This document shows, one piece after another, positions 4,096 to 29,281 of a stretch of 64,000 nt of DNA. Source of the DNA: a virus (Duplodnaviria; Caudoviricetes); the IMG/VR virus record IMGVR_UViG_3300014205_000182, positions 79,725-143,724 of that record; one strand, 5' to 3'. Both the position numbers and the translations under genes were made by a program. The notes beneath the pieces are model-generated. The model had not been told where the DNA came from. It searched no databases and saw only the letters and a list, made by a program, of their open reading frames with translations. Numbering within the stretch: position 1 is the stretch's first letter; every line of letters begins with the position of its first letter.

Positions 4096-4475
4096 AGGTT
4101 GCTAAACAAGTCATCGTAATGCGCAAGGATCTCAACATGCGCAAGGGTAAGATGGTTGCACAGGGAGCCCACGCTTCTCTGGGCGCTGTTCTGGTGATCC
4201 GTAAGGAGCTAGACGGTGAGCCAGGCCATGCCTGGGGTGAGGCCTTTAGGCAGTGGATGACAGGCACCTTCACCAAAATCTGCGTGTCTGTAAGTTCTGA
4301 GAGCGAGCTTATGGATATCTTCCACGCCGCTAATGACGCTGGTCTGCCGGTCAAGCTAATCACCGACGCCGGGCACACCGAATTCCACGGCGTACCAACA
4401 CGTACGTGTTTGGCTATTGGTCCCGCATGGTCCGACGACATCGACACTGTCACAGGAAAGCTAGCACTACTATGA
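4092..4475 (+). CDS. pth2: peptidyl-tRNA hydrolase type 2
   Basis: KQVIVMRKDLNMRKGKMVAQGAHA, DAGHTEF, TCLAIGP, ID.VTGKL.LL. Confidence 0.95.
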   Translation: MKVAKQVIVMRKDLNMRKGKMVAQGAHASLGAVLVIRKELDGEPGHAWGEAFRQWMTGTFTKICVSVSSESELMDIFHAANDAGLPVKLITDAGHTEFHGVPTRTCLAIGPAWSDDIDTVTGKLALL

Positions 4476-4695
4476 GCGAGCAAATCCTACGTCAAGTCAA
4501 ACTCACGCGACCAATGCATAACGGCCACGCCGAGGAGATTGCCTGGATCGACAACGAGAAAGCCAAGCTCAACAAGTTCGTCGAGGACGAAGATGGGGTC
4601 GTTTGGCTAGTAGCGGAGCTTTACGGCGCTAAGCCGTTCTCAGCTGTCGATCGAACGGCGAGGGTGGCTAGAGAAGTCGCTGACGTCCTCAAAGA

Positions 4696-7666: not shown

Positions 7667-10246
7667 CTAGTTGCTATCGCGCAAGCCTGAGGTTGAACTT
7701 TCTGCAATCTCTGGTGAAGTGCCTTCCGGAAGACGCCACATCGGCTGCCCCTCGTCACCGAGTGTTGGCAGCAGGCCCGCCTCTTTGATAGCAGCAGAGA
7801 TGCCCTTCTGGCGACCAGGAAGCTTCTCAATCTCGATGTCTAGCGCGGACTTAGCAATCTCGGCCAGCGTCCACTGACGGCGCACGTTGACACCCACAGA
7901 ATTACGACGCGACCACTCGCGAATGAGCCCAGCCCAGGTGTTCTCTGGACGACGCTTCTCGACGACAAGCGCTGCCATATCCTGCTCGGTCTCCGTCTCA
8001 AACCACCAGCGTTCACCAGGGCACTCAGGGTGCGCCAGAGAAGGGTTCAAGTCAGCGTGAAGATAACGGTAAGCGGCCTCTGCCCACAGCTGATCGCGGT
8101 CAGCACGAAGTCGAATCGTGTCACATTCGCCCACAGCTACTGGCCAGTAACGACGGTTACCGGTTTCGTCTGGCAAGTACTCACCCTGGTTGGTCGAACC
8201 GATAAACACTGCGTATCGCTTGAATTCCTCTGGAGCCTTGCCGTAGGGCGGGCGGTAGTTGTCGACGCGGGCCGAGATGAACGCCTTCTGGCTTTCCGTC
8301 TCAGAAGCACGTAGCGAAGCAAGCTCAGCAAGCTCGATGATCCAGCGGTAGCTGGCCATCTGCATGGAGTCCTTGTTACCAATTACGAGAGGAGAGTCAG
8401 AGAACCAAGAGCCGGCAAGTACGCTGGCAGCTTTGGACTTTCCAACACCCTGGCGACCTTCTAGAATCAGAACAGTGTCGACCTTGCTTCCGGGTACGAG
8501 TCCACGAGCACACGCCGAGATCATCCACATCGCCCCGACGCGACGGTTGAAATCTGTGTCTTCGGCGCCACAGTAATCGATGAGCCAGGTGTCAATGCGT
8601 GGCTTACGATCCCACTTAACCGCACGCAAGTACTCAGCAACGGGGTTGTACTCGTTGCGTCGAGCGATCAGTAGAAGCTGATCTTCGATTTGCGTCCTGT
8701 TGGCAGTCACCTGCCACTTGCGGTCCATCCAGTTCATGACGTCGGTTGCCAGGACGTTGCTCGAAACGTCCTTGAAAAGCTCTGCTGTAATCTCTACTTG
8801 CTTCGTTAGCCCGTTGAATCGAATGCTGTTTCCCACTACGGAATCTCCGTTCAGAATCTGGTAAAGGTTGTTGGGGCAATTCTTGACCCCTTCACCTTCA
8901 CTGTCAAGCTTTAACGTAGCCATGAGGTCGTAATCAGCCTCGGGTAGATCGGCAGGACCGCCACCAGGTGCGCTTGCAGGAGCAGGTGTAACAGGAAGGG
9001 AGTCGGCCAGGCTAGCAAACTGAGAAGCTCCGGCAATACTCTTGGGCCGAGCTTGGCGAAGCAATTCACGTGCCCGGTCTTCGGGCATGTTGGTGCCCAT
9101 CAGAAGGGTGGCAAACTGATCGTCGGTCGTACCGGTAGGACAGTTACGAATCAGTGCTTGTGTAGCTAGTAGTTCGTTATCACCTAGATATTTCTTATCC
9201 AGAATCTGCGAGATTAGTTCTTTGTCGACTCCCTTGGCAGGATCCGACGTTCGCTTTGCTTTGATAGCCTTCAGGGTTTCTGTAACGAGAATGTCTGGTG
9301 GCTTCGTGTACGCCGGTAGAACAGGAGCGTCACTAAGCCCAAGAGCATCTAGACGCTGTTCCTCGCCTCGATACGCGGCACCCCAAACCGGCATGTTGGC
9401 ACGCTGGTACGCCGACCAGACATGACGACCCATACGTGCGCCCCACGGAGGGACGCACTTCTTATCAAACTCCATTGCAGCTTCAAGCGCAGCTTCCGAG
9501 TCACGCACACCATAAGAACGAATGGCCGAACGCACAATGTTGAACGTCGTACCTGCCGTCGATGTACCCTTGACTTCACCAGGCTCACGAGCAAAGTGTG
9601 CCTTCATGTCTGCGATGCGTTGCTCGTTTGGAATCTTGGCGAGCCACTCCGGTTCCTCCTTCGGAATACCGACGTCACCGACTTCGCTGGTCTTTCGCAG
9701 CGCTTCTTTCCAGGAATCTGGAAGCTCCGCAACAGCGATCTCCGTCGGACCAAGACCCTCCTGCCATGCGTAGTTACCACCACTTGCATGGTTTGACGGC
9801 GCAACAATAATGTACGCCTTCGAACGGATAACAATTCCGCCGAGAACACCACGCACCGGGCCTCCGGGAGACTGCACGATCGCGTGGAAGCCTTCACCAG
9901 AGCCAGAGCGCTGTGTAACCGTCGAAGGAAGCGGCCCGAGTGTTTGCTCAAGTGCTGCTAACTTAGCTAGATCTTTGTTGTACTCGTCAAGGTCAAACCC
10001 CAGGAGCCCGGAAGGCTCCATGACGACGGCGATCGATGCATCTGGCATCGCAGTCCACCAGGCACGAATTTGCGCTTCGTCTGTGGTAGCATCCGTCAGC
10101 CCGTTATTGGAACACGGGTGCTTACCAGGAGATACACATTGTGGTCTACCGCACGCACAGATCCCATCACGCATCGGGTAGCACGGGATCACGTACCAAC
10201 CGATTTTACTGTAGGCTAAGGCAAAATCTAGCATCGTCGCCGACAT
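7667..10246 (-). CDS. bifunctional primase-polymerase fused to VirE/VapE-type helicase
   Basis: N-term GWYVIP..C.CG..C.SPGKHP, FDLD, GFH; C-term LEGRQGVGKS Walker A, IELAEL, DETGNRRYWP, RDQLWAEA. Confidence 0.92.
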   Translation of the reverse strand: MSATMLDFALAYSKIGWYVIPCYPMRDGICACGRPQCVSPGKHPCSNNGLTDATTDEAQIRAWWTAMPDASIAVVMEPSGLLGFDLDEYNKDLAKLAALEQTLGPLPSTVTQRSGSGEGFHAIVQSPGGPVRGVLGGIVIRSKAYIIVAPSNHASGGNYAWQEGLGPTEIAVAELPDSWKEALRKTSEVGDVGIPKEEPEWLAKIPNEQRIADMKAHFAREPGEVKGTSTAGTTFNIVRSAIRSYGVRDSEAALEAAMEFDKKCVPPWGARMGRHVWSAYQRANMPVWGAAYRGEEQRLDALGLSDAPVLPAYTKPPDILVTETLKAIKAKRTSDPAKGVDKELISQILDKKYLGDNELLATQALIRNCPTGTTDDQFATLLMGTNMPEDRARELLRQARPKSIAGASQFASLADSLPVTPAPASAPGGGPADLPEADYDLMATLKLDSEGEGVKNCPNNLYQILNGDSVVGNSIRFNGLTKQVEITAELFKDVSSNVLATDVMNWMDRKWQVTANRTQIEDQLLLIARRNEYNPVAEYLRAVKWDRKPRIDTWLIDYCGAEDTDFNRRVGAMWMISACARGLVPGSKVDTVLILEGRQGVGKSKAASVLAGSWFSDSPLVIGNKDSMQMASYRWIIELAELASLRASETESQKAFISARVDNYRPPYGKAPEEFKRYAVFIGSTNQGEYLPDETGNRRYWPVAVGECDTIRLRADRDQLWAEAAYRYLHADLNPSLAHPECPGERWWFETETEQDMAALVVEKRRPENTWAGLIREWSRRNSVGVNVRRQWTLAEIAKSALDIEIEKLPGRQKGISAAIKEAGLLPTLGDEGQPMWRLPEGTSPEIAESSTSGLRDSN

Positions 10247-11291: not shown

Positions 11292-13199
11292 ATGGCGAAT
11301 GCAGGCTGGAAACACGGATCGGCATTATCTGCCGATAAGAAGACGTGGCGTTATTTTTCACCATCGACCCTGATGTCTGGTGACTTAGGCACCACCGAAG
11401 GCTGCCTTCGTAAGGTGTATTACGAAAAGGTACTGGAACTAAAGGGACCGGAGCAGAAATGGCTTACGACGGGCAAGGATCTTCACGCCGAGAACGAAAA
11501 GTATCTGCTAACCGGTGATCGTTCGCACATGACTTCCCTGGCACTGTCGGGAATTCACATGCTACCGAAGCCACAGACTATCGATCCACGTATCAAGATC
11601 GAATGGGAAATCGCTGGCAACCTCGCCACAGCACCACTGCAAGCAGCAGGCGTGCCAATTGCCGGGTTCATCGATTGCATTCACTGGCAAGGTACGAACG
11701 CCGGGACGTCTGACATAACCGACACTATTGATCCTGAAGGCACAGTAGAAGTTATCGACTGGAAGACGACCTCCGACGCTAAGTACATCAAGTCTCCTCA
11801 GGAAGTAGCGCGCACTCTTCAGATGACGACGTACGGCAAGTGGGCTCTCGTCACACACCAGGCCGAGTGGGTACGGCTAAGTCACGGGTACTACGTGACC
11901 AAGGGTCGTCACACGACTCGTAAAGTTTCACTGCGTGTCCATAAGGATCAGATTGACGAACGTTGGGAGTACGTCGAAGCCTTGGCTGGTTCTCTGAAGG
12001 AGGCCATCAAAGAAGACAACGTAGACAAGGTCCCGGCAAACACCCGGGCTTGCGATGCCTACCGAGGATGTCCTCACCGTTCATACTGCTCTGCTGCCGC
12101 GCACAATAGCTTATCTTCCCTTTTCTCCTCGGATTTTGCATCAGCCCTACTAGGCTTGGACAAACCAGAAGTACTTACCGTAGAAAATACAGGACCAGAA
12201 AAAATGTCACTACTAGCCAAACTACAAGCTGCCACCACACCTGCACCGGGACCAAAGCCCGAGGTTGCTCTAGAAATGAAGCGACTTGCGCTCGAAGAGA
12301 TCACTGTGAAGTACCCTGGCATCGGGGACACTATCACGAAGCTTGAGACTTTAGGGCTCGGTCTACCGGTCCTTCTAGGAGAGGCTGCACGTGTTTACGC
12401 TGTCATCAAGGGTAACGCTCCTTACGCAAACGGGGAGCTAGCTGGCTTCGAGTTCGACGACCCGGCACAGCTACCAGTCGTTCTCGCAGAAGCCGAGGCG
12501 ATTGTTGCGGAGCGTGTCAAGAACGGTGTACCTGCTCCGGTGGTCGCTACGCCTGTAGCCGTAACCAGCCCGTTCCCAGAAGATGCTCCTCCTGCACAAG
12601 CTTCTCCACCTGTTGAGGAACTTCCGGCACCTCCGATCAACTCTGCTGCTGAGGCGATTGCCGCAGCGGCAAGTGATGCTCCGAAGAAGAGAGCAGGCAG
12701 GCCGAAGAAGGTTGTTGCTGCCCCTGAGGAAACGACAGCAAACGTAACCGTTGTGGTTAACGGTACTGTTACCCCGCAGGAAGTCAACAAGGCTATAGAG
12801 ACTGGGCAGTCAGTAGCCAAGACCATTCTTATTGACTCGGCTGAGCACGTCACTAACGTGGCAGCTGAAAGCTCAGCAGGAATCAACCTCTTCGTCGACT
12901 GCGTTCCCAGCTGCAAGTACGAATCGTTCTGGCCATATGTCGACCGTATCACCAAGGCCATGGCCAAGGAGTATGGTGGCGTTGACTACCGTGCAGCGGA
13001 TAACGACAAGCCAACAGCCTTCGGTAAGTACAAAGGGTTTTTGGCACACGGACTTCGTACCCTTGCTCAGGCTGGTGAGATCCCAGCCGGTAATTACGTA
13101 CTGGACGGGGCCCGAACAGAGACTGGTGGTGTAGTTGTGGAGGCTATGAGAGATATTGTTGCACAGTCGGGTGGACTCTTGGTTCGTGGCATCATGTGA
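11292..13199 (+). CDS. Cas4/AddB-like PD-(D/E)XK exonuclease with long Pro/Ala-rich C-terminal half
   Basis: GCLRK, GFID, IDWKT, QxxxY, C..Y.GCP...C Fe-S cysteines. Confidence 0.85.
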   Translation: MANAGWKHGSALSADKKTWRYFSPSTLMSGDLGTTEGCLRKVYYEKVLELKGPEQKWLTTGKDLHAENEKYLLTGDRSHMTSLALSGIHMLPKPQTIDPRIKIEWEIAGNLATAPLQAAGVPIAGFIDCIHWQGTNAGTSDITDTIDPEGTVEVIDWKTTSDAKYIKSPQEVARTLQMTTYGKWALVTHQAEWVRLSHGYYVTKGRHTTRKVSLRVHKDQIDERWEYVEALAGSLKEAIKEDNVDKVPANTRACDAYRGCPHRSYCSAAAHNSLSSLFSSDFASALLGLDKPEVLTVENTGPEKMSLLAKLQAATTPAPGPKPEVALEMKRLALEEITVKYPGIGDTITKLETLGLGLPVLLGEAARVYAVIKGNAPYANGELAGFEFDDPAQLPVVLAEAEAIVAERVKNGVPAPVVATPVAVTSPFPEDAPPAQASPPVEELPAPPINSAAEAIAAAASDAPKKRAGRPKKVVAAPEETTANVTVVVNGTVTPQEVNKAIETGQSVAKTILIDSAEHVTNVAAESSAGINLFVDCVPSCKYESFWPYVDRITKAMAKEYGGVDYRAADNDKPTAFGKYKGFLAHGLRTLAQAGEIPAGNYVLDGARTETGGVVVEAMRDIVAQSGGLLVRGIM

Positions 13200-17816: not shown

Positions 17817-17845
17817 TTGACACCACCCACCAGGGTGGTTACTGT
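17817..17845 (+). promoter_or_regulatory. sigma70-type promoter for ncRNA locus 1
   Basis: TTGACA-N17-TACTGT; predicted start near 17851-17852 matches first RNA stem. Confidence 0.75.
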
Positions 17846-17851
17846 ATCTGA

Positions 17852-17927
17852 GTCACCAAGCATGGTACCTGAGGAGATCTCAGGGCACGACCAAGTTGTT
17901 CTTCGTTCGCATGAAACACTTGGTGAC
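17852..17927 (+). ncRNA. unknown structured RNA (RNA X)
   Basis: 9-bp closing stem GTCACCAAG/CTTGGTGAC enclosing CCTGAG/CTCAGG hairpin; non-coding, at predicted TSS. Confidence 0.55.
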
Positions 17928-17932
17928 GATTA

Positions 17933-18008
17933 GGTGAGGTACGCTAAGTTAAAGCGGCGGGCACTATAAAGCCCGTGTTTGGTGGTTCATGTCCATCCCT
18001 CACCACCA
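17933..18008 (+). tRNA. atypical tRNA/tRNA-like RNA, 8-nt anticodon loop, identity undetermined
   Basis: acceptor GGTGAGG/CCTCACC + A-CCA; D stem CGCT/AGCG; stem CGGGC/GCCCG with loop ACTATAAA; T arm GGTGG-TTCATGT-CCATC; no D-loop GG. Confidence 0.75.
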
Positions 18009-18092
18009 TCCGATAGTGATGCTAGCGGTTACTTCTTTGTCTAAGGACGGGTTCTTCGGGACCCGTAAATACCCGCTGCGATTTTCTTCGGA
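18009..18092 (+). ncRNA. Y-RNA-like scaffold copy 4
   Basis: TCCGA/TCGGA closing stem, TAGTGA, TAGCGG/CCGCTG, TTACTTCT, UUCG hairpin insert; same consensus as 27-kb copies. Confidence 0.7.
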
Positions 18093-18323
18093 CTAATTTA
18101 TGAGCATCCCAAACTACTATAACGACGGGCATACTGCCAGCGCAGAGATGAAGCGCGACCTTGCACGTGTTCGCCTGGCTAAGCCAGAGCGCTACCTAAC
18201 TCGCAAGGTGAAGGAACAGCGGCATTCAACCGAAGGTACGGTCGACGTTGTCGTCAACCGCGAGCCTGATTCGTTGGCGATGGGGCGTCGTGCGCGACAC
18301 GAGTTCTGGACCAGGAGAGCTAA

Positions 18324-18773
18324 ATGAGCGTCTTCGATACTTCTGATGTGGCTGGTGAGCATGCTCCTTATTTCAAGGAGATCGAGCGGCTGGAGATGTC
18401 AAACCAGCGACTCATTGCAGAGCTAGGGCGCATTGCCGAAGCTCTGGGTGTTGAACCGTCTATGGTTAAGGTTCTCGGTAAGATTCAGGAACTTCAAGAC
18501 CGGCAGGTTGAGGTTTGTTACCGATCTAGACACGTTATCTACAGTAACAAAGCAGCAGCCGAAGAAGATGCTGCGTATTACAACGGCCAACCAGACGACG
18601 TGGTCCCTGTGTTTAAGGTGTCACCTACACTTTATTATGAGAAGGCGTACACTACGACCAGCACTCACGGTATCAAGGTATTCTCGACTTTCGACGATTA
18701 TCTGAAAGCTATCGCACTTGGTACCTTGACACCGCGCCAAAAAGTCTTACTAGGGTTGCAGGAGAAAGAATAA
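18324..18773 (+). CDS. hypothetical protein
   Basis: coupled ORF. Confidence 0.55.
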   Translation: MSVFDTSDVAGEHAPYFKEIERLEMSNQRLIAELGRIAEALGVEPSMVKVLGKIQELQDRQVEVCYRSRHVIYSNKAAAEEDAAYYNGQPDDVVPVFKVSPTLYYEKAYTTTSTHGIKVFSTFDDYLKAIALGTLTPRQKVLLGLQEKE

Positions 18774-26778: not shown

Positions 26779-27017
26779 GTGATATGAACAATTCACAGAA
26801 GGCGGTACAGGCTCTGGTTATTCAGCTGCACGAAGCCGGTGAGCCGATTGAAGACATTACCGACGCGTTCTCGTTTGCTGGTGCCATTGCAGCGGCAAGC
26901 CTCAAGCTGCCGCGACGCAACGTCGAAGGCCTTGTCGGTATTCTTGCATCGGTGATGAACAACGAGATCCCTTCGCATTATCCGTCCCTTGACGATAAGC
27001 CCTTGACAGAGAACTAG
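26775..27017 (+). CDS. hypothetical protein
   Basis: coupled ORF. Confidence 0.5.
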   Translation: MSDMNNSQKAVQALVIQLHEAGEPIEDITDAFSFAGAIAAASLKLPRRNVEGLVGILASVMNNEIPSHYPSLDDKPLTEN

Positions 27018-27031
27018 TTCGTAGTTAGATT
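27003..27031 (+). promoter_or_regulatory. sigma70-type promoter for ncRNA array and Ro60
   Basis: TTGACA-N17-TAGATT; predicted TSS near 27037, first base of scaffold 1. Confidence 0.75.
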
Positions 27032-27036
27032 GTTTT

Positions 27037-27101
27037 TGAGACAGTGAAGCTGACGGATACTTCATCCATTAAAGAAACCCCGTCAACGTTATATCTTCTC
27101 A
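27037..27101 (+). ncRNA. Y-RNA-like scaffold copy 1
   Basis: TGAGA/TCTCA, CAGTGA, TGACGG/CCGTCA, ATACTTCAT, TATCT. Confidence 0.7.
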
Positions 27102-27105
27102 TTTT

Positions 27106-27179
27106 GCCCCTGTAGCTTAATTCTAGAGCACCGGTCATTAGGACCGGGGATCGTGGTGAAAATCCATGCAGGGGCGCCA
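27106..27179 (+). tRNA. atypical tRNA, nominal anticodon UUA
   Basis: acceptor GCCCCTG/CAGGGGC + G-CCA; D stem GCTT/GAGC; CCGGT-CATTAGG-ACCGG; T arm CGTGG-TGAAAAT-CCATG; A33, no D-loop GG. Confidence 0.75.
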
Positions 27180-27180
27180 A

Positions 27181-27241
27181 GCGGTAGTGATAGACTCGGA
27201 TACTTCATGGGGAAATAAACCCGAGTCAACAATATCTCCGC
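27181..27241 (+). ncRNA. Y-RNA-like scaffold copy 2
   Basis: GCGG/CCGC, TAGTGA, GACTCGG/CCGAGTC, ATACTTCAT, TATCT. Confidence 0.7.
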
Positions 27242-27251
27242 GTTAATTTAT

Positions 27252-27337
27252 GCACCTTATAGCTAGCAGCGGCGTGAATCACCAGCAGTACTGGTCGCGA
27301 AAGCGTAGTCACGACAAAATGAAGGTAGGGTGCGCCA
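27252..27337 (+). ncRNA. CCA-ended pseudo-tRNA with non-cloverleaf core
   Basis: acceptor-like stem GCACCTTA/TAGGGTGC + G-CCA; core CGTGA/TCACG enclosing ACCAG/CTGGT and CGC-GAAA-GCG hairpins. Confidence 0.6.
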
Positions 27338-27340
27338 ATT

Positions 27341-27470
27341 TGCCGATAGTGATGAGAGCGGTTACTTCATTGATAACGAACGAGGTCCGGGCTGCAAACC
27401 CCGGCGCACCTGCAAAGGTGTGTAGCTTAATAGTAGAGCGCGAAAACACCGCAATCGATTATCTTCGGCA
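27341..27470 (+). ncRNA. YrlA-like Y RNA (scaffold copy 3) with circularly permuted tRNA module
   Basis: TGCCGA/TCGGCA; TAGTGA; GCGGT/ACCGC; order is T arm CCGGG/CCCGG, 7-bp acceptor CGCACCT/AGGTGTG closed by GCAA, TA, D arm GCTT-AATAGTA-GAGC; next to Ro60. Confidence 0.8.
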
Positions 27471-27478
27471 CTTTTCAA

Positions 27479-27524
27479 GTGCGCCCCTGGACTGAGGGTC
27501 GGGGGACGGGGTCCAGGGGCGCAC
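27479..27524 (+). promoter_or_regulatory. 14-bp GC hairpin with G-rich loop before Ro60 (attenuator/terminator-like)
   Basis: GTGCGCCCCTGGAC/GTCCAGGGGCGCAC followed by ATCCTTTT. Confidence 0.55.
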
Positions 27525-27640
27525 ATCCTTTTATGTCCAGCAAGCATTACAACCCTGAAAAACGTGTATGGCGAGGCCGCTCCTACAAGAACGGCAAGCG
27601 TGTTTCTGAACTCAAGTACTCCAACAAAGGTAGTGACACA

Positions 27641-29281
27641 ATGGCAAACATTCTGAATCCAAAGTCTCCGAAGAAGATCGACCAAGTCGAAACCCACAAG
27701 AACTGGATGGGTGGAACTTCGTTCGACATCAACGATCCAATCATGCGGCTGCGCATCGCAGCTAGCTCGTGCTTCTTTGGCGAGCCACAGTACTACTCGA
27801 CGGACCCTGACGACAAGCGCAAGGCGCGTCAGGCATCTATGCCTGCTAACTTCGGGAAGCCGACGACACTGCCGGCAGCGCAGCTTACCAAGCTTCGTCA
27901 GACGCTGACGGCCATCGATCCTCAGGAGTGGCGGTCGATGACGCCGGCTCAGGCGATGGTCTCTGCTATCGACGCAGCCCTAGACCACGACCCTGAGGCA
28001 ACGCTCGGCATTGCAGCAGCGCTTCGCCAGGCTGATCACATCCGTACGACGCCCCAGGTTATCCTGGTTCGTGCAGCACACCACCCCAAGGTTCGTGGTA
28101 CTGGCATGCTCAAGAAGTATGCTCAGGAGATCATGGCACGTGCAGACGAGCCGGCCGTCGGTCTCGCATACCACATCTTTGCCTACGGCAAGGAGAAGCC
28201 AATCCCGAACGCCCTGAAGAAGGTGTGGGCACAGCGCCTCGCACGTGCTTCGGAGTACGACCTCGCCAAGTATCGCCTGGCTGACCACTCGGTCAAGACG
28301 GTCGACGTCGTCAACCTCGTTCACGCCAAGTCTCCAGCAATCGGAAAGCTCATGAAGGGTGAACTTACGACCGAGGGCGAGACGTGGGAGTCCATCATCT
28401 CGCAAGGCGGATCTACCAAGGAAAACTGGGAGAAGGCCATCGACAAGATGGGCCACATGGCCCTACTGCGAAACCTGCGTAACTTCAACGACAAGGGTGT
28501 TAACCCGTCGCTGTACACTGGCAAGCTCGTTGGTGGCGCAGCGACCGGTAAGCAGCTTCCGTTCCGCTATTACTCGGCGTACAAGGCTGTCGCCGGTTCT
28601 TCGGCACCGGTGATGGACGCTATCGAGCAGTGTCTGGAGATTTCGCTGGGTAACCTGCCGAAGTTCCCGGGCCGTACGATGGCGCTTGCCGACAACTCGG
28701 GCTCGGCTCGTGGTGCAACCACGTCCACGATGGGAACGATGCAGGTTTCGACGATTGCTAACTTGACGGCTATCGTGGCCGGCAAGGTGTCGGACGACGG
28801 CTACATCGGTGTCTTCGGTGACACGTTGAACGTCGTGCCGGTGCGCAAGAGGTCGTCGGTGTTCGATCAGTTGAAGGCTGCCGACGAAGCTGGTGCAGCA
28901 GTCGGCGGTTCTACCGAGAACGGTATCTGGCTGTTCTGGGAGAAGGCTATCCGCGAGAAGGAGCATTGGGACAACGTGTTCGTGATGTCTGATATGCAGG
29001 CAGGTCACGGCGGGCTCTATGGTACGCGTGCGTCGATGGCGTCGTACTCTCGTGAGTACGGTTGGCCGGCAGCTAACTCGCCGCACATCGACGTCGCCAA
29101 GCTCGTCAACACGTATCGCGCCAAGGTCAACCCGAAGGTCAACGTGTTTCTAATCCAGGTCGCCGGTTACCAGGACACCCTGATGCCGGAGTTCTACAAC
29201 CGTACGTATATCCTCGGCGGATGGGGTGAAGGCGTTCTTCGCTTTGCTGCCGCGATGGCTAATATCGGAGAGGTTAAGTGA
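27641..29281 (+). CDS. rsr: Ro60/TROVE domain RNA-binding protein
   Basis: N..GG.SF, FGEPQYY, RADEP, EYDLAKY, DVVNLVHAK, TWE, MALLRNLRN, QLPFRYYSAY, vWA DNSGS/SDMQ, GWGE; upstream in-frame ATG at 27533 also possible. Confidence 0.93.
   Translation: MANILNPKSPKKIDQVETHKNWMGGTSFDINDPIMRLRIAASSCFFGEPQYYSTDPDDKRKARQASMPANFGKPTTLPAAQLTKLRQTLTAIDPQEWRSMTPAQAMVSAIDAALDHDPEATLGIAAALRQADHIRTTPQVILVRAAHHPKVRGTGMLKKYAQEIMARADEPAVGLAYHIFAYGKEKPIPNALKKVWAQRLARASEYDLAKYRLADHSVKTVDVVNLVHAKSPAIGKLMKGELTTEGETWESIISQGGSTKENWEKAIDKMGHMALLRNLRNFNDKGVNPSLYTGKLVGGAATGKQLPFRYYSAYKAVAGSSAPVMDAIEQCLEISLGNLPKFPGRTMALADNSGSARGATTSTMGTMQVSTIANLTAIVAGKVSDDGYIGVFGDTLNVVPVRKRSSVFDQLKAADEAGAAVGGSTENGIWLFWEKAIREKEHWDNVFVMSDMQAGHGGLYGTRASMASYSREYGWPAANSPHIDVAKLVNTYRAKVNPKVNVFLIQVAGYQDTLMPEFYNRTYILGGWGEGVLRFAAAMANIGEVK

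Follow-up and report, generated by a model that had tools for sequence, protein, structure and literature searches.

The window analysed here is a 64,000-nt stretch of DNA, bases 79725-143724 of a 143.7-kb IMG/VR phage record. A small-RNA locus occupies positions 17817-18092 of its plus strand and comprises, in order, a promoter, RNA X (17852-17927), a tRNA mimic referred to as T (17933-18008) and a short Y-RNA-like scaffold referred to as S4 (18009-18092). S4 ends 9441 nt before the coding start (27533) of a Ro60 gene on the same strand, which bears out the proposal, made in an earlier note on this DNA, of a second non-coding RNA operon about 9 kb away. Beyond S4, an AU-rich junction leads into the first downstream ORF of 75 aa (together 18093-18327, +). 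The next start codon lies 8 nt past the S4 end, no terminator was found between S4 and this ORF, and relatives have this same ORF start behind their RNA leader. About 30 tRNA genes form an array in the part of the genome outside the window. The DNA of the locus had no match among cultured phages, and the flanking proteins had no relatives in IMG/VR or in phages G001-G003; relatives were found only in a large protein collection. An Rfam scan of the whole window at gathering scores returned nothing and missed even the tRNAs, so the Rfam scans reported below are those of small regions.

The promoter (17817-17845, +) is composed of a perfect -35 box, TTGACA (17817-17822), a 17-nt spacer and a -10 box, TACTGT (17840-17845), that agrees with TATAAT at three of six positions. 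It had previously been called a consensus promoter. The promoter is present and its -35 deserves the name, but the -10 does not, and this weak -10 leads a generic promoter scan to reject the site. The pattern TTGACA-N16-18-TAnnnT occurs at 24 sites in the genome, the 17817 promoter among them, compared with 2.2 expected from shuffles, and most of the 24, again including this one, have GTGnT just upstream of the -10. Structured RNA starts exactly 7 nt past the -10 at the promoter of X, at the Ro60-proximal promoter and at two promoters in relatives. Further copies of this phage promoter family are located at window positions 1025 (+), 7662 (-) and 35928 (-), with about 20 more across the genome; in many copies no more than 6-9 nt separate the -10 from an ATG, a spacing suggestive of leaderless mRNAs. 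The spacer at 17823-17839 contains a dyad, CCACCC..GGGTGG, and the inverted repeat is kept via paired changes in the relatives L229 (3617-3633) and L232 (2190-2206). The repeat is not transcribed, yet it is kept in three related phages, and it may be an operator.

RNA X runs from the predicted +1, 7 nt past the -10, and consists of a closing stem of 9 bp (P1) and a hairpin of 6 bp (P2) with a GAGAU loop. Its fold has a z of -2.3, and the closing stem and hairpin are real. Among eight copies from seven phages, aligned without structural guidance, pairing of P1 and P2 extends to 96.7% of the cells, versus a maximum of 45% after sliding, and two-sided changes are seen in 11 of 15 pairs. Across the copies CAUGGU and CAUGAAACA hardly vary, and the P2 loop is largely conserved, mostly as GAGAU or GAGAG. 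A paired CAUG/CAUG extension of the closing stem was considered and rejected as inconsistent across copies. Nothing in Rfam matches X. Model R3, which describes X, finds one copy in this genome and zero in 25 other Ro60 phages; X therefore tracks this operon leader and not Ro60. A sequence search with X against a set of collected loci returned only the window's own copy. Elsewhere X is found without S4 in L232, L235 and L238, in the last of these ahead of a U12 run, and in tandem in L237. Thus the RNA reported at 17852-17927 in the earlier note, where it was left unassigned, is a new covarying RNA motif and an independent conserved leader RNA, which could be either a released small RNA or a cis-acting leader. 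Directly 5' of X, a conserved tRNA-like mini-helix (a T arm plus an acceptor-like stem) is seen in L234 (2150-2205), L235 (2140-2190) and L237 (2175-2225), and the gene after the tandem copies in L237 encodes a Tad2-like domain.

The Rfam tRNA model gives T (17933-18008, +) 42.9 bits, above the RF00005 gathering score of 29 bits, and the cloverleaf of T folds with a z of -3.9, in agreement with the tRNA-like RNA previously read there. It has a 7-bp acceptor stem, the discriminator A and an encoded CCA. The features of a decoding tRNA are missing, with an anticodon loop of 8 nt, not 7, and a D loop without GG (G18 G19); default ARAGORN misses T and detects it only at a relaxed threshold. A paralogue at genome positions 8347-8421 (-) is 80% identical, its acceptor and T stems differing from those of T by compensatory changes; it belongs to the tRNA array as an ordinary gene and directly adjoins a true tRNA. 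An orthologue in L149 (phage G004) has the acceptor stem of the paralogue and a 6-nt anticodon loop. The anticodon loops of T, paralogue and orthologue thus measure 8, 6 and 6 nt and differ in sequence as well, and a decoding role of T is therefore unlikely. Relatives do not have T in this leader, where it was found only in the present phage. T is most likely a processing signal or tRNA decoy rather than a decoding tRNA. At least four tRNA-like genes with 6-nt or 8-nt anticodon loops are present in this phage, at genome positions 4469-4544 (+), 12326-12399 (-) and 8347-8421 (-) and at window position 17933-18008, and normal decoding is impossible for all four.

The first base of S4 (18009-18092, +) is the base directly after the CCA of T, with zero spacer. 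S4 is made up of an outer stem, a YAGUGAW/UUCU internal loop, an inner stem ending in CGG, the sequence WUACUUC and a cargo hairpin closed by UUCG; its 5' end reads UCCGAUAG and its inner stem reads GCGGUUAC. Model R2, described below, matches it full-length (model positions 1-76) with 53.5 bits and an E of 2e-9, the best match in the 143.7-kb genome. S4 forms all 11 model pairs with every stem intact, and its first 30 nt are 90% identical to scaffold S3 by BLAST. A scaffold that starts right after the CCA and combines such motifs with a UUCG hairpin, as had been suggested, is therefore what is found. The S4 orthologues preserve the UUCG loop and the U/A-rich strand ahead of the hairpin, and the outer and hairpin stems covary, which points to selection on the cargo.

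A main array of related RNAs precedes the Ro60 gene. A promoter of the same type as that at 17817 (27003-27031, +) is followed by scaffold S1 (27037-27101, +; R2 43.2 bits), a tRNA with anticodon UUA and encoded CCA (27106-27179, +), scaffold S2 directly after it (27180-27242, +; R2 41.9 bits) and scaffold S3 (27342-27469, +; R2 47.8 bits), which is YrlA-type with a tRNA-like cargo, although the Rfam YrlA score on that cargo is weak (14.9 bits). The Ro60 (TROVE) gene at 27533-29281 (+; Pfam TROVE E 5e-13; phrog_850) encodes the presumed protein partner, whose nearest solved structure is the Ro60 of Thermus phage phiLo (9KOP/9L5Y). The UUA anticodon of the tRNA between S1 and S2 would read the UAA stop, and its position 33 is A, not U; the tRNA-like element of L229 is related to it, with UUU. 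A CCA-ended element between S2 and S3 (27246-27341), with a 7-bp acceptor-like stem and a GCCA end, was rejected as a candidate, as its fold (z -1.05) is no better than shuffles and neither ARAGORN nor tRNA models matched it. The gap from S3 to the Ro60 start codon (27479-27531) holds a strong GC-rich hairpin and, after it, a short run of T, probably a leaky terminator splitting the RNA array from Ro60 expression. A fifth scaffold, S5, lies inside the tRNA array at genome positions 12935-13007 (-) (L128, 237-307; R2 49.3 bits), about 94 kb from Ro60, and starts 5 nt after a degenerate tRNA-Glu-like cloverleaf without CCA.

The scaffold family was delineated with two models. Eleven scaffolds went into model R1: this genome supplied five and two other phages the remaining six. 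Over 52 loci around phage Ro60 genes it gave 63 matches, 63 of 63 on the Ro60 strand and most no more than 700 nt upstream of the gene. In L152, L156, L162, L165 and L123, scaffolds lie directly 5' of Ro60 with no tRNA within 10 kb, and the family is thus tied to Ro60, not merely to tRNA arrays. Both helices covary: pairs fill 95% of cells, a share that sliding the partner lowers to 54% or less, and two-sided changes occur in 10 of 11 pairs, in an alignment that was fitted to the model and so leans toward the structure. Model R2 was made from the 63 external matches alone, with no sequence from this genome, and finds exactly five copies here (S1-S5), S4 ranking first. As a negative control, R2 was run over 100 phage loci containing the literal 5' motif (864 kb), and strong matches occurred in only three, one of which is the G008 orphan described below while one adjoins a Ro60 gene. 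Matches to the literal 5' motif in IMG/VR were mostly chance among 119 stretches, with real scaffolds only in L103, L114, L017, L013 and L038, and the junction pattern of ACCA plus scaffold gave three matches, all chance.

Scaffolds are present in 23 of 25 Ro60 phage records at one to six each, and Bacillus phage G has seven. Every complete record carrying the family has a Ro60 gene; G026 (L013) gave no TROVE match in a record that is only 26% complete. Contacts with tRNAs are frequent on both sides. An ARAGORN tRNA ends within 12 nt upstream of 10 of 45 scaffolds and starts within 12 nt downstream of 12 of 45, counts that are minima since ARAGORN misses mimics such as T, and 8 of 45 lie within 40 nt after another scaffold. 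The occurrence of tRNAs on either side fits release of the scaffolds by RNase P and 3' tRNA processing. In L218 (1116-1572; phage G019) a phage tmRNA gene is followed by a scaffold some 12-15 nt later.

A 206-aa protein is encoded upstream of the locus, and its homologues led to syntenic relatives. S4 orthologues are known from no more than three relatives, in the leader of the syntenic gene, the relatives named being L229 and L231/L241 (one contig), and the flanking protein in relatives with S4 is only 63-73% identical to the one here. The leader of L229 reads promoter, S4 orthologue, tRNA-like element with CCA, ORF. That of L231 reads X, a 40-nt spacer, the S4 orthologue, about 85 nt and the ORF, without a tRNA upstream of S4. 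L241, a 20-kb view of the same contig, has the layout of the present phage: helicase, 210-aa gene, X-S4 leader, small ORFs, vWA protein, polymerase, RNA ligase, 133-aa gene, three scaffolds and TROVE. From S4 to TROVE downstream of it the distance is 7.1 kb. The orphan position of the scaffold is thus conserved, in the same leader in L229 and L231/L241. The further suggestion that the tRNA-CCA and the scaffold are copied or moved together as a unit does not hold. The S4 of L231 has no upstream tRNA, the tRNA-like element of L229 is downstream, X is found in three relatives without S4, T is a paralogue of a tRNA-array gene, and tRNAs occur on either side of scaffolds. From these varied arrangements it follows that the modules move separately; tRNA-CCA plus scaffold is not a fixed mobile unit, and the modules shuffle independently.

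Orphan scaffolds behind tRNAs, which the earlier note had proposed to look for in related phages, do exist. A copy in G008 lies 5 nt past a tRNA-Gly and 123 kb from Ro60. All five scaffolds of G010 are 77-82 kb from its single Ro60 gene, most of them wedged tightly between tRNAs, and one scaffold of G003 is within a tRNA array. Bacillus phage G (L243; JN638751.1, 403399-413021) shows seven R2 matches, of which five fill an unannotated 1-kb gap before the TROVE gene gp540 and the others lie 2.2 kb upstream and 3.7 kb downstream. One phage G scaffold is beside a tRNA-Gly in a tRNA/tmRNA array. Given the conserved orphan position and scaffolds 77-123 kb from single Ro60 genes elsewhere, action in trans, as had been inferred for these scaffolds, is the natural reading, and phage Y RNAs apparently need not adjoin Ro60.

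Bacterial Y RNAs have been sought within about 4 kb of a Ro60 gene and on the same strand (PMC4201824). The phage family as a whole conforms to this, with its 63 of 63 same-strand matches and its usual distance of 700 nt or less, whereas S4, on the same strand but 9441 nt upstream, lies outside the 4-kb window; as had been foreseen for a scaffold with no adjacent Ro60, synteny-based searches miss it. The ends of S4 pair into a stem broken by a conserved loop, as in Y RNAs, in the form of two covarying helices with all 11 pairs. The exact motif GNCGAAN0-1G near the 5' end is missing from S4. In the Rfam alignment of the G001 scaffold, the sole full-length YrlA match, the YrlA 5' motif falls on the CGG-WUAC region of the scaffold with only the CG core shared, and the outer stem and the YAGUGAW/UUCU loop are outside the aligned stretch. 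S4 gave no match to RF02553 (gathering score 69 bits) at E up to 10, and none to Rfam Y_RNA. Scaffolds with tRNA-like cargo match YrlA significantly but below the gathering score in G001 (34 bits) and phage G (36 bits), with 14.9 bits for S3. The tRNA-like domain that defines YrlA and is not found in YrlB is absent from S4, whose cargo is a single UUCG hairpin, and S4 resembles YrlB rather than YrlA. S4 therefore departs from the published class on three formal counts, namely distance from Ro60, the exact GNCGAAN0-1G and the Rfam threshold. It is a genuine, conserved, non-adjacent member of the phage Y-RNA-like family.

Several known systems share parts of this arrangement. YrlA and YrlB (Chen et al. 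2014, PMC4201824; RF02553) lie on the Ro60 strand and have 5' and 3' ends that form a stem with a conserved internal loop, and one copy per genome has a tRNA-like domain (here S3) while others are plain hairpins (here S4). In M. smegmatis a single precursor yields both YrlA and YrlB, and YrlA is cleaved by RNase P (PMC4201824); a comparable derivation of several RNAs from one precursor is predicted here. Unlike them, S4 is 9.4 kb from Ro60, has an additional outer stem and YAGUGAW/UUCU loop outside the Rfam-matched part, and belongs to scaffolds that are multi-copy (2-7 per phage) and interleaved with tRNAs. In Thermus phage phiLo, Yrl1 and Yrl2 are reportedly encoded upstream of the phage's Ro60 gene and have been shown to bind Ro60 (PMC12135203). 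As in the present phage, Y-like RNAs and a Ro60 are both phage-encoded, and among solved proteins the phiLo Ro60 is nearest to that of the window, but the phiLo RNAs lie immediately 5' of Ro60 with a CGAA motif, and R2 found no match in the Yrl1/Yrl2 region. Metazoan Y RNAs comprise several paralogues with one common Ro60-binding stem and different loops; they act in trans from genes unlinked to that of Ro60. The phage scaffolds resemble them in the common stem, the differing loops and the unlinked genes, whereas metazoan Y RNAs are single polymerase III units, and the likeness is one of arrangement, Rfam Y_RNA giving no match. In mitochondrial transcripts and herpesvirus tRNA-miRNA units, small RNAs are punctuated by tRNAs, with RNase P and 3' tRNA processing setting the ends. 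The present locus likewise places a tRNA-like fold directly beside another small RNA, but it belongs to a phage and carries Y-like RNAs and motif X as passengers, with the processing predicted.

The locus is probably a second conserved small-RNA locus of the phage Ro60 system, situated in the leader of an mRNA operon, in which tRNA-type processing would yield an S4 that acts in trans on Ro60. This reading draws on the family membership of S4, the link of the family with Ro60, the covarying structures, the conserved orphan position and the abutment of scaffolds and tRNAs; the transcription start, the cleavage sites, Ro60 binding and the cargo partner are predictions. Points that count against it are the missing R2 match in the phiLo region with its Ro60-binding RNAs, the lack in S4 of an exact GNCGAAN0-1G and of an Rfam Y RNA match, the direct junction of CCA and S4, which might leave the two joined, the absent terminator and nearby start codon, which would allow a role in cis, and the small number of S4 orthologues. 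Transcription from the phage sigma-70-type promoter would start at about G17852 and produce one transcript with X, T, S4 and then the downstream ORFs. A cut by host RNase P at the 5' end of T would free X, maturation of the T 3' end at or after the CCA would generate the 5' end of S4, and a cut in the AU-rich stretch ahead of the start codon would generate its 3' end. The freed S4, of about 85 nt, could then bind, through the two-stem docking module of the family, the phage Ro60 made 9.4 kb downstream. There it might compete or alternate with S1-S3 and S5 and present its cargo, the U/A-rich strand and UUCG hairpin, to a partner, e.g. an exoribonuclease.

Alternatively, T and S4 might stay joined as a two-domain Y RNA with the tRNA-like domain at its 5' end, a rearranged YrlA. 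The absence of any nucleotide between the CCA and the outer stem of S4 is what such an RNA would look like, YrlA-type scaffolds do carry a tRNA-like domain as cargo, and in many bacteria RNase Z is hindered by an encoded CCA. The arrangement is not preserved, however, since the S4 orthologue has no upstream tRNA-like element in L231 and a downstream one in L229; T is, moreover, the paralogue of an ordinary array member abutting a true tRNA, and elsewhere scaffolds abut canonical tRNAs, which need release. A joined RNA is accordingly regarded as unlikely.

It is likewise improbable that S4, X or both serve as cis-acting 5'-UTR regulators of the downstream operon, e.g. with Ro60 or another factor near the start codon controlling translation or decay. 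The lack of a terminator, the ORF start 8 nt past S4 and the sharing of this leader by X and S4 across relatives would suit such a role, as would the attenuator-like placement of X before the U12 run in L238 and in tandem in L237. The spacing between S4 and the ORF varies, though, as L229 has a tRNA-like element there and L231 about 85 nt, and members of the scaffold family also lie between tRNAs with no gene to regulate. For X, a cis role may still apply.

A still less probable alternative is that the scaffolds serve another tRNA or RNA-repair factor, such as an RNA ligase, phosphatase or processing enzyme, their link with Ro60 being genomic hitch-hiking. Ro60 genes are often within tRNA arrays, genes for an RNA ligase and a phosphatase-like protein closely precede Ro60 here and in L241, and the phiLo region encodes Ro60-binding RNAs without an R2 match. 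Against this, scaffolds occur directly 5' of Ro60 at the five loci without a tRNA within 10 kb, every complete record with the family has a Ro60 gene, and the tRNA-like cargo of some scaffolds matches published YrlA. That S4 is a decaying, functionless duplicate, as its place away from the main array and the 90% identity of its first 30 nt to S3 could be taken to mean, is hardly credible for the best-scoring copy in the genome, with intact stems and with position and cargo conserved in relatives whose flanking protein has diverged as far as stated above.

If the preferred reading, a trans-acting S4 released by tRNA-type processing, is extended to the family, a broader picture can be offered, though tentatively and as somewhat less likely than not. 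Phage Ro60 could be served by a toolbox of four to seven modular Y RNAs with one docking module and swappable cargos, their genes scattered in tRNA arrays and mRNA leaders and the RNAs excised by host tRNA processing. The partner of the S4 lineage would differ from that of the tRNA-like copies, and X would be a further, unrelated class of RNA from the same transcript.

In published work, bacterial and phage Y RNAs have been searched for by proximity to Ro60 and with the YrlA model, and both approaches miss S4 and most of the scaffold family. If dispersed, tRNA-processed Y RNAs are real, the number and variety of phage Ro60 RNPs have been underestimated, and otherwise unexplained gaps in phage tRNA arrays would be explained. 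With its clear covariation, motif X adds a further, new RNA family. Bacillus phage G is cultivable, has seven scaffolds and is a possible test system. A counter-defence role has been proposed for phage Ro60 (Bas63 gp130; PMC11482910), and for that role the dispersed scaffolds would provide concrete RNA candidates.
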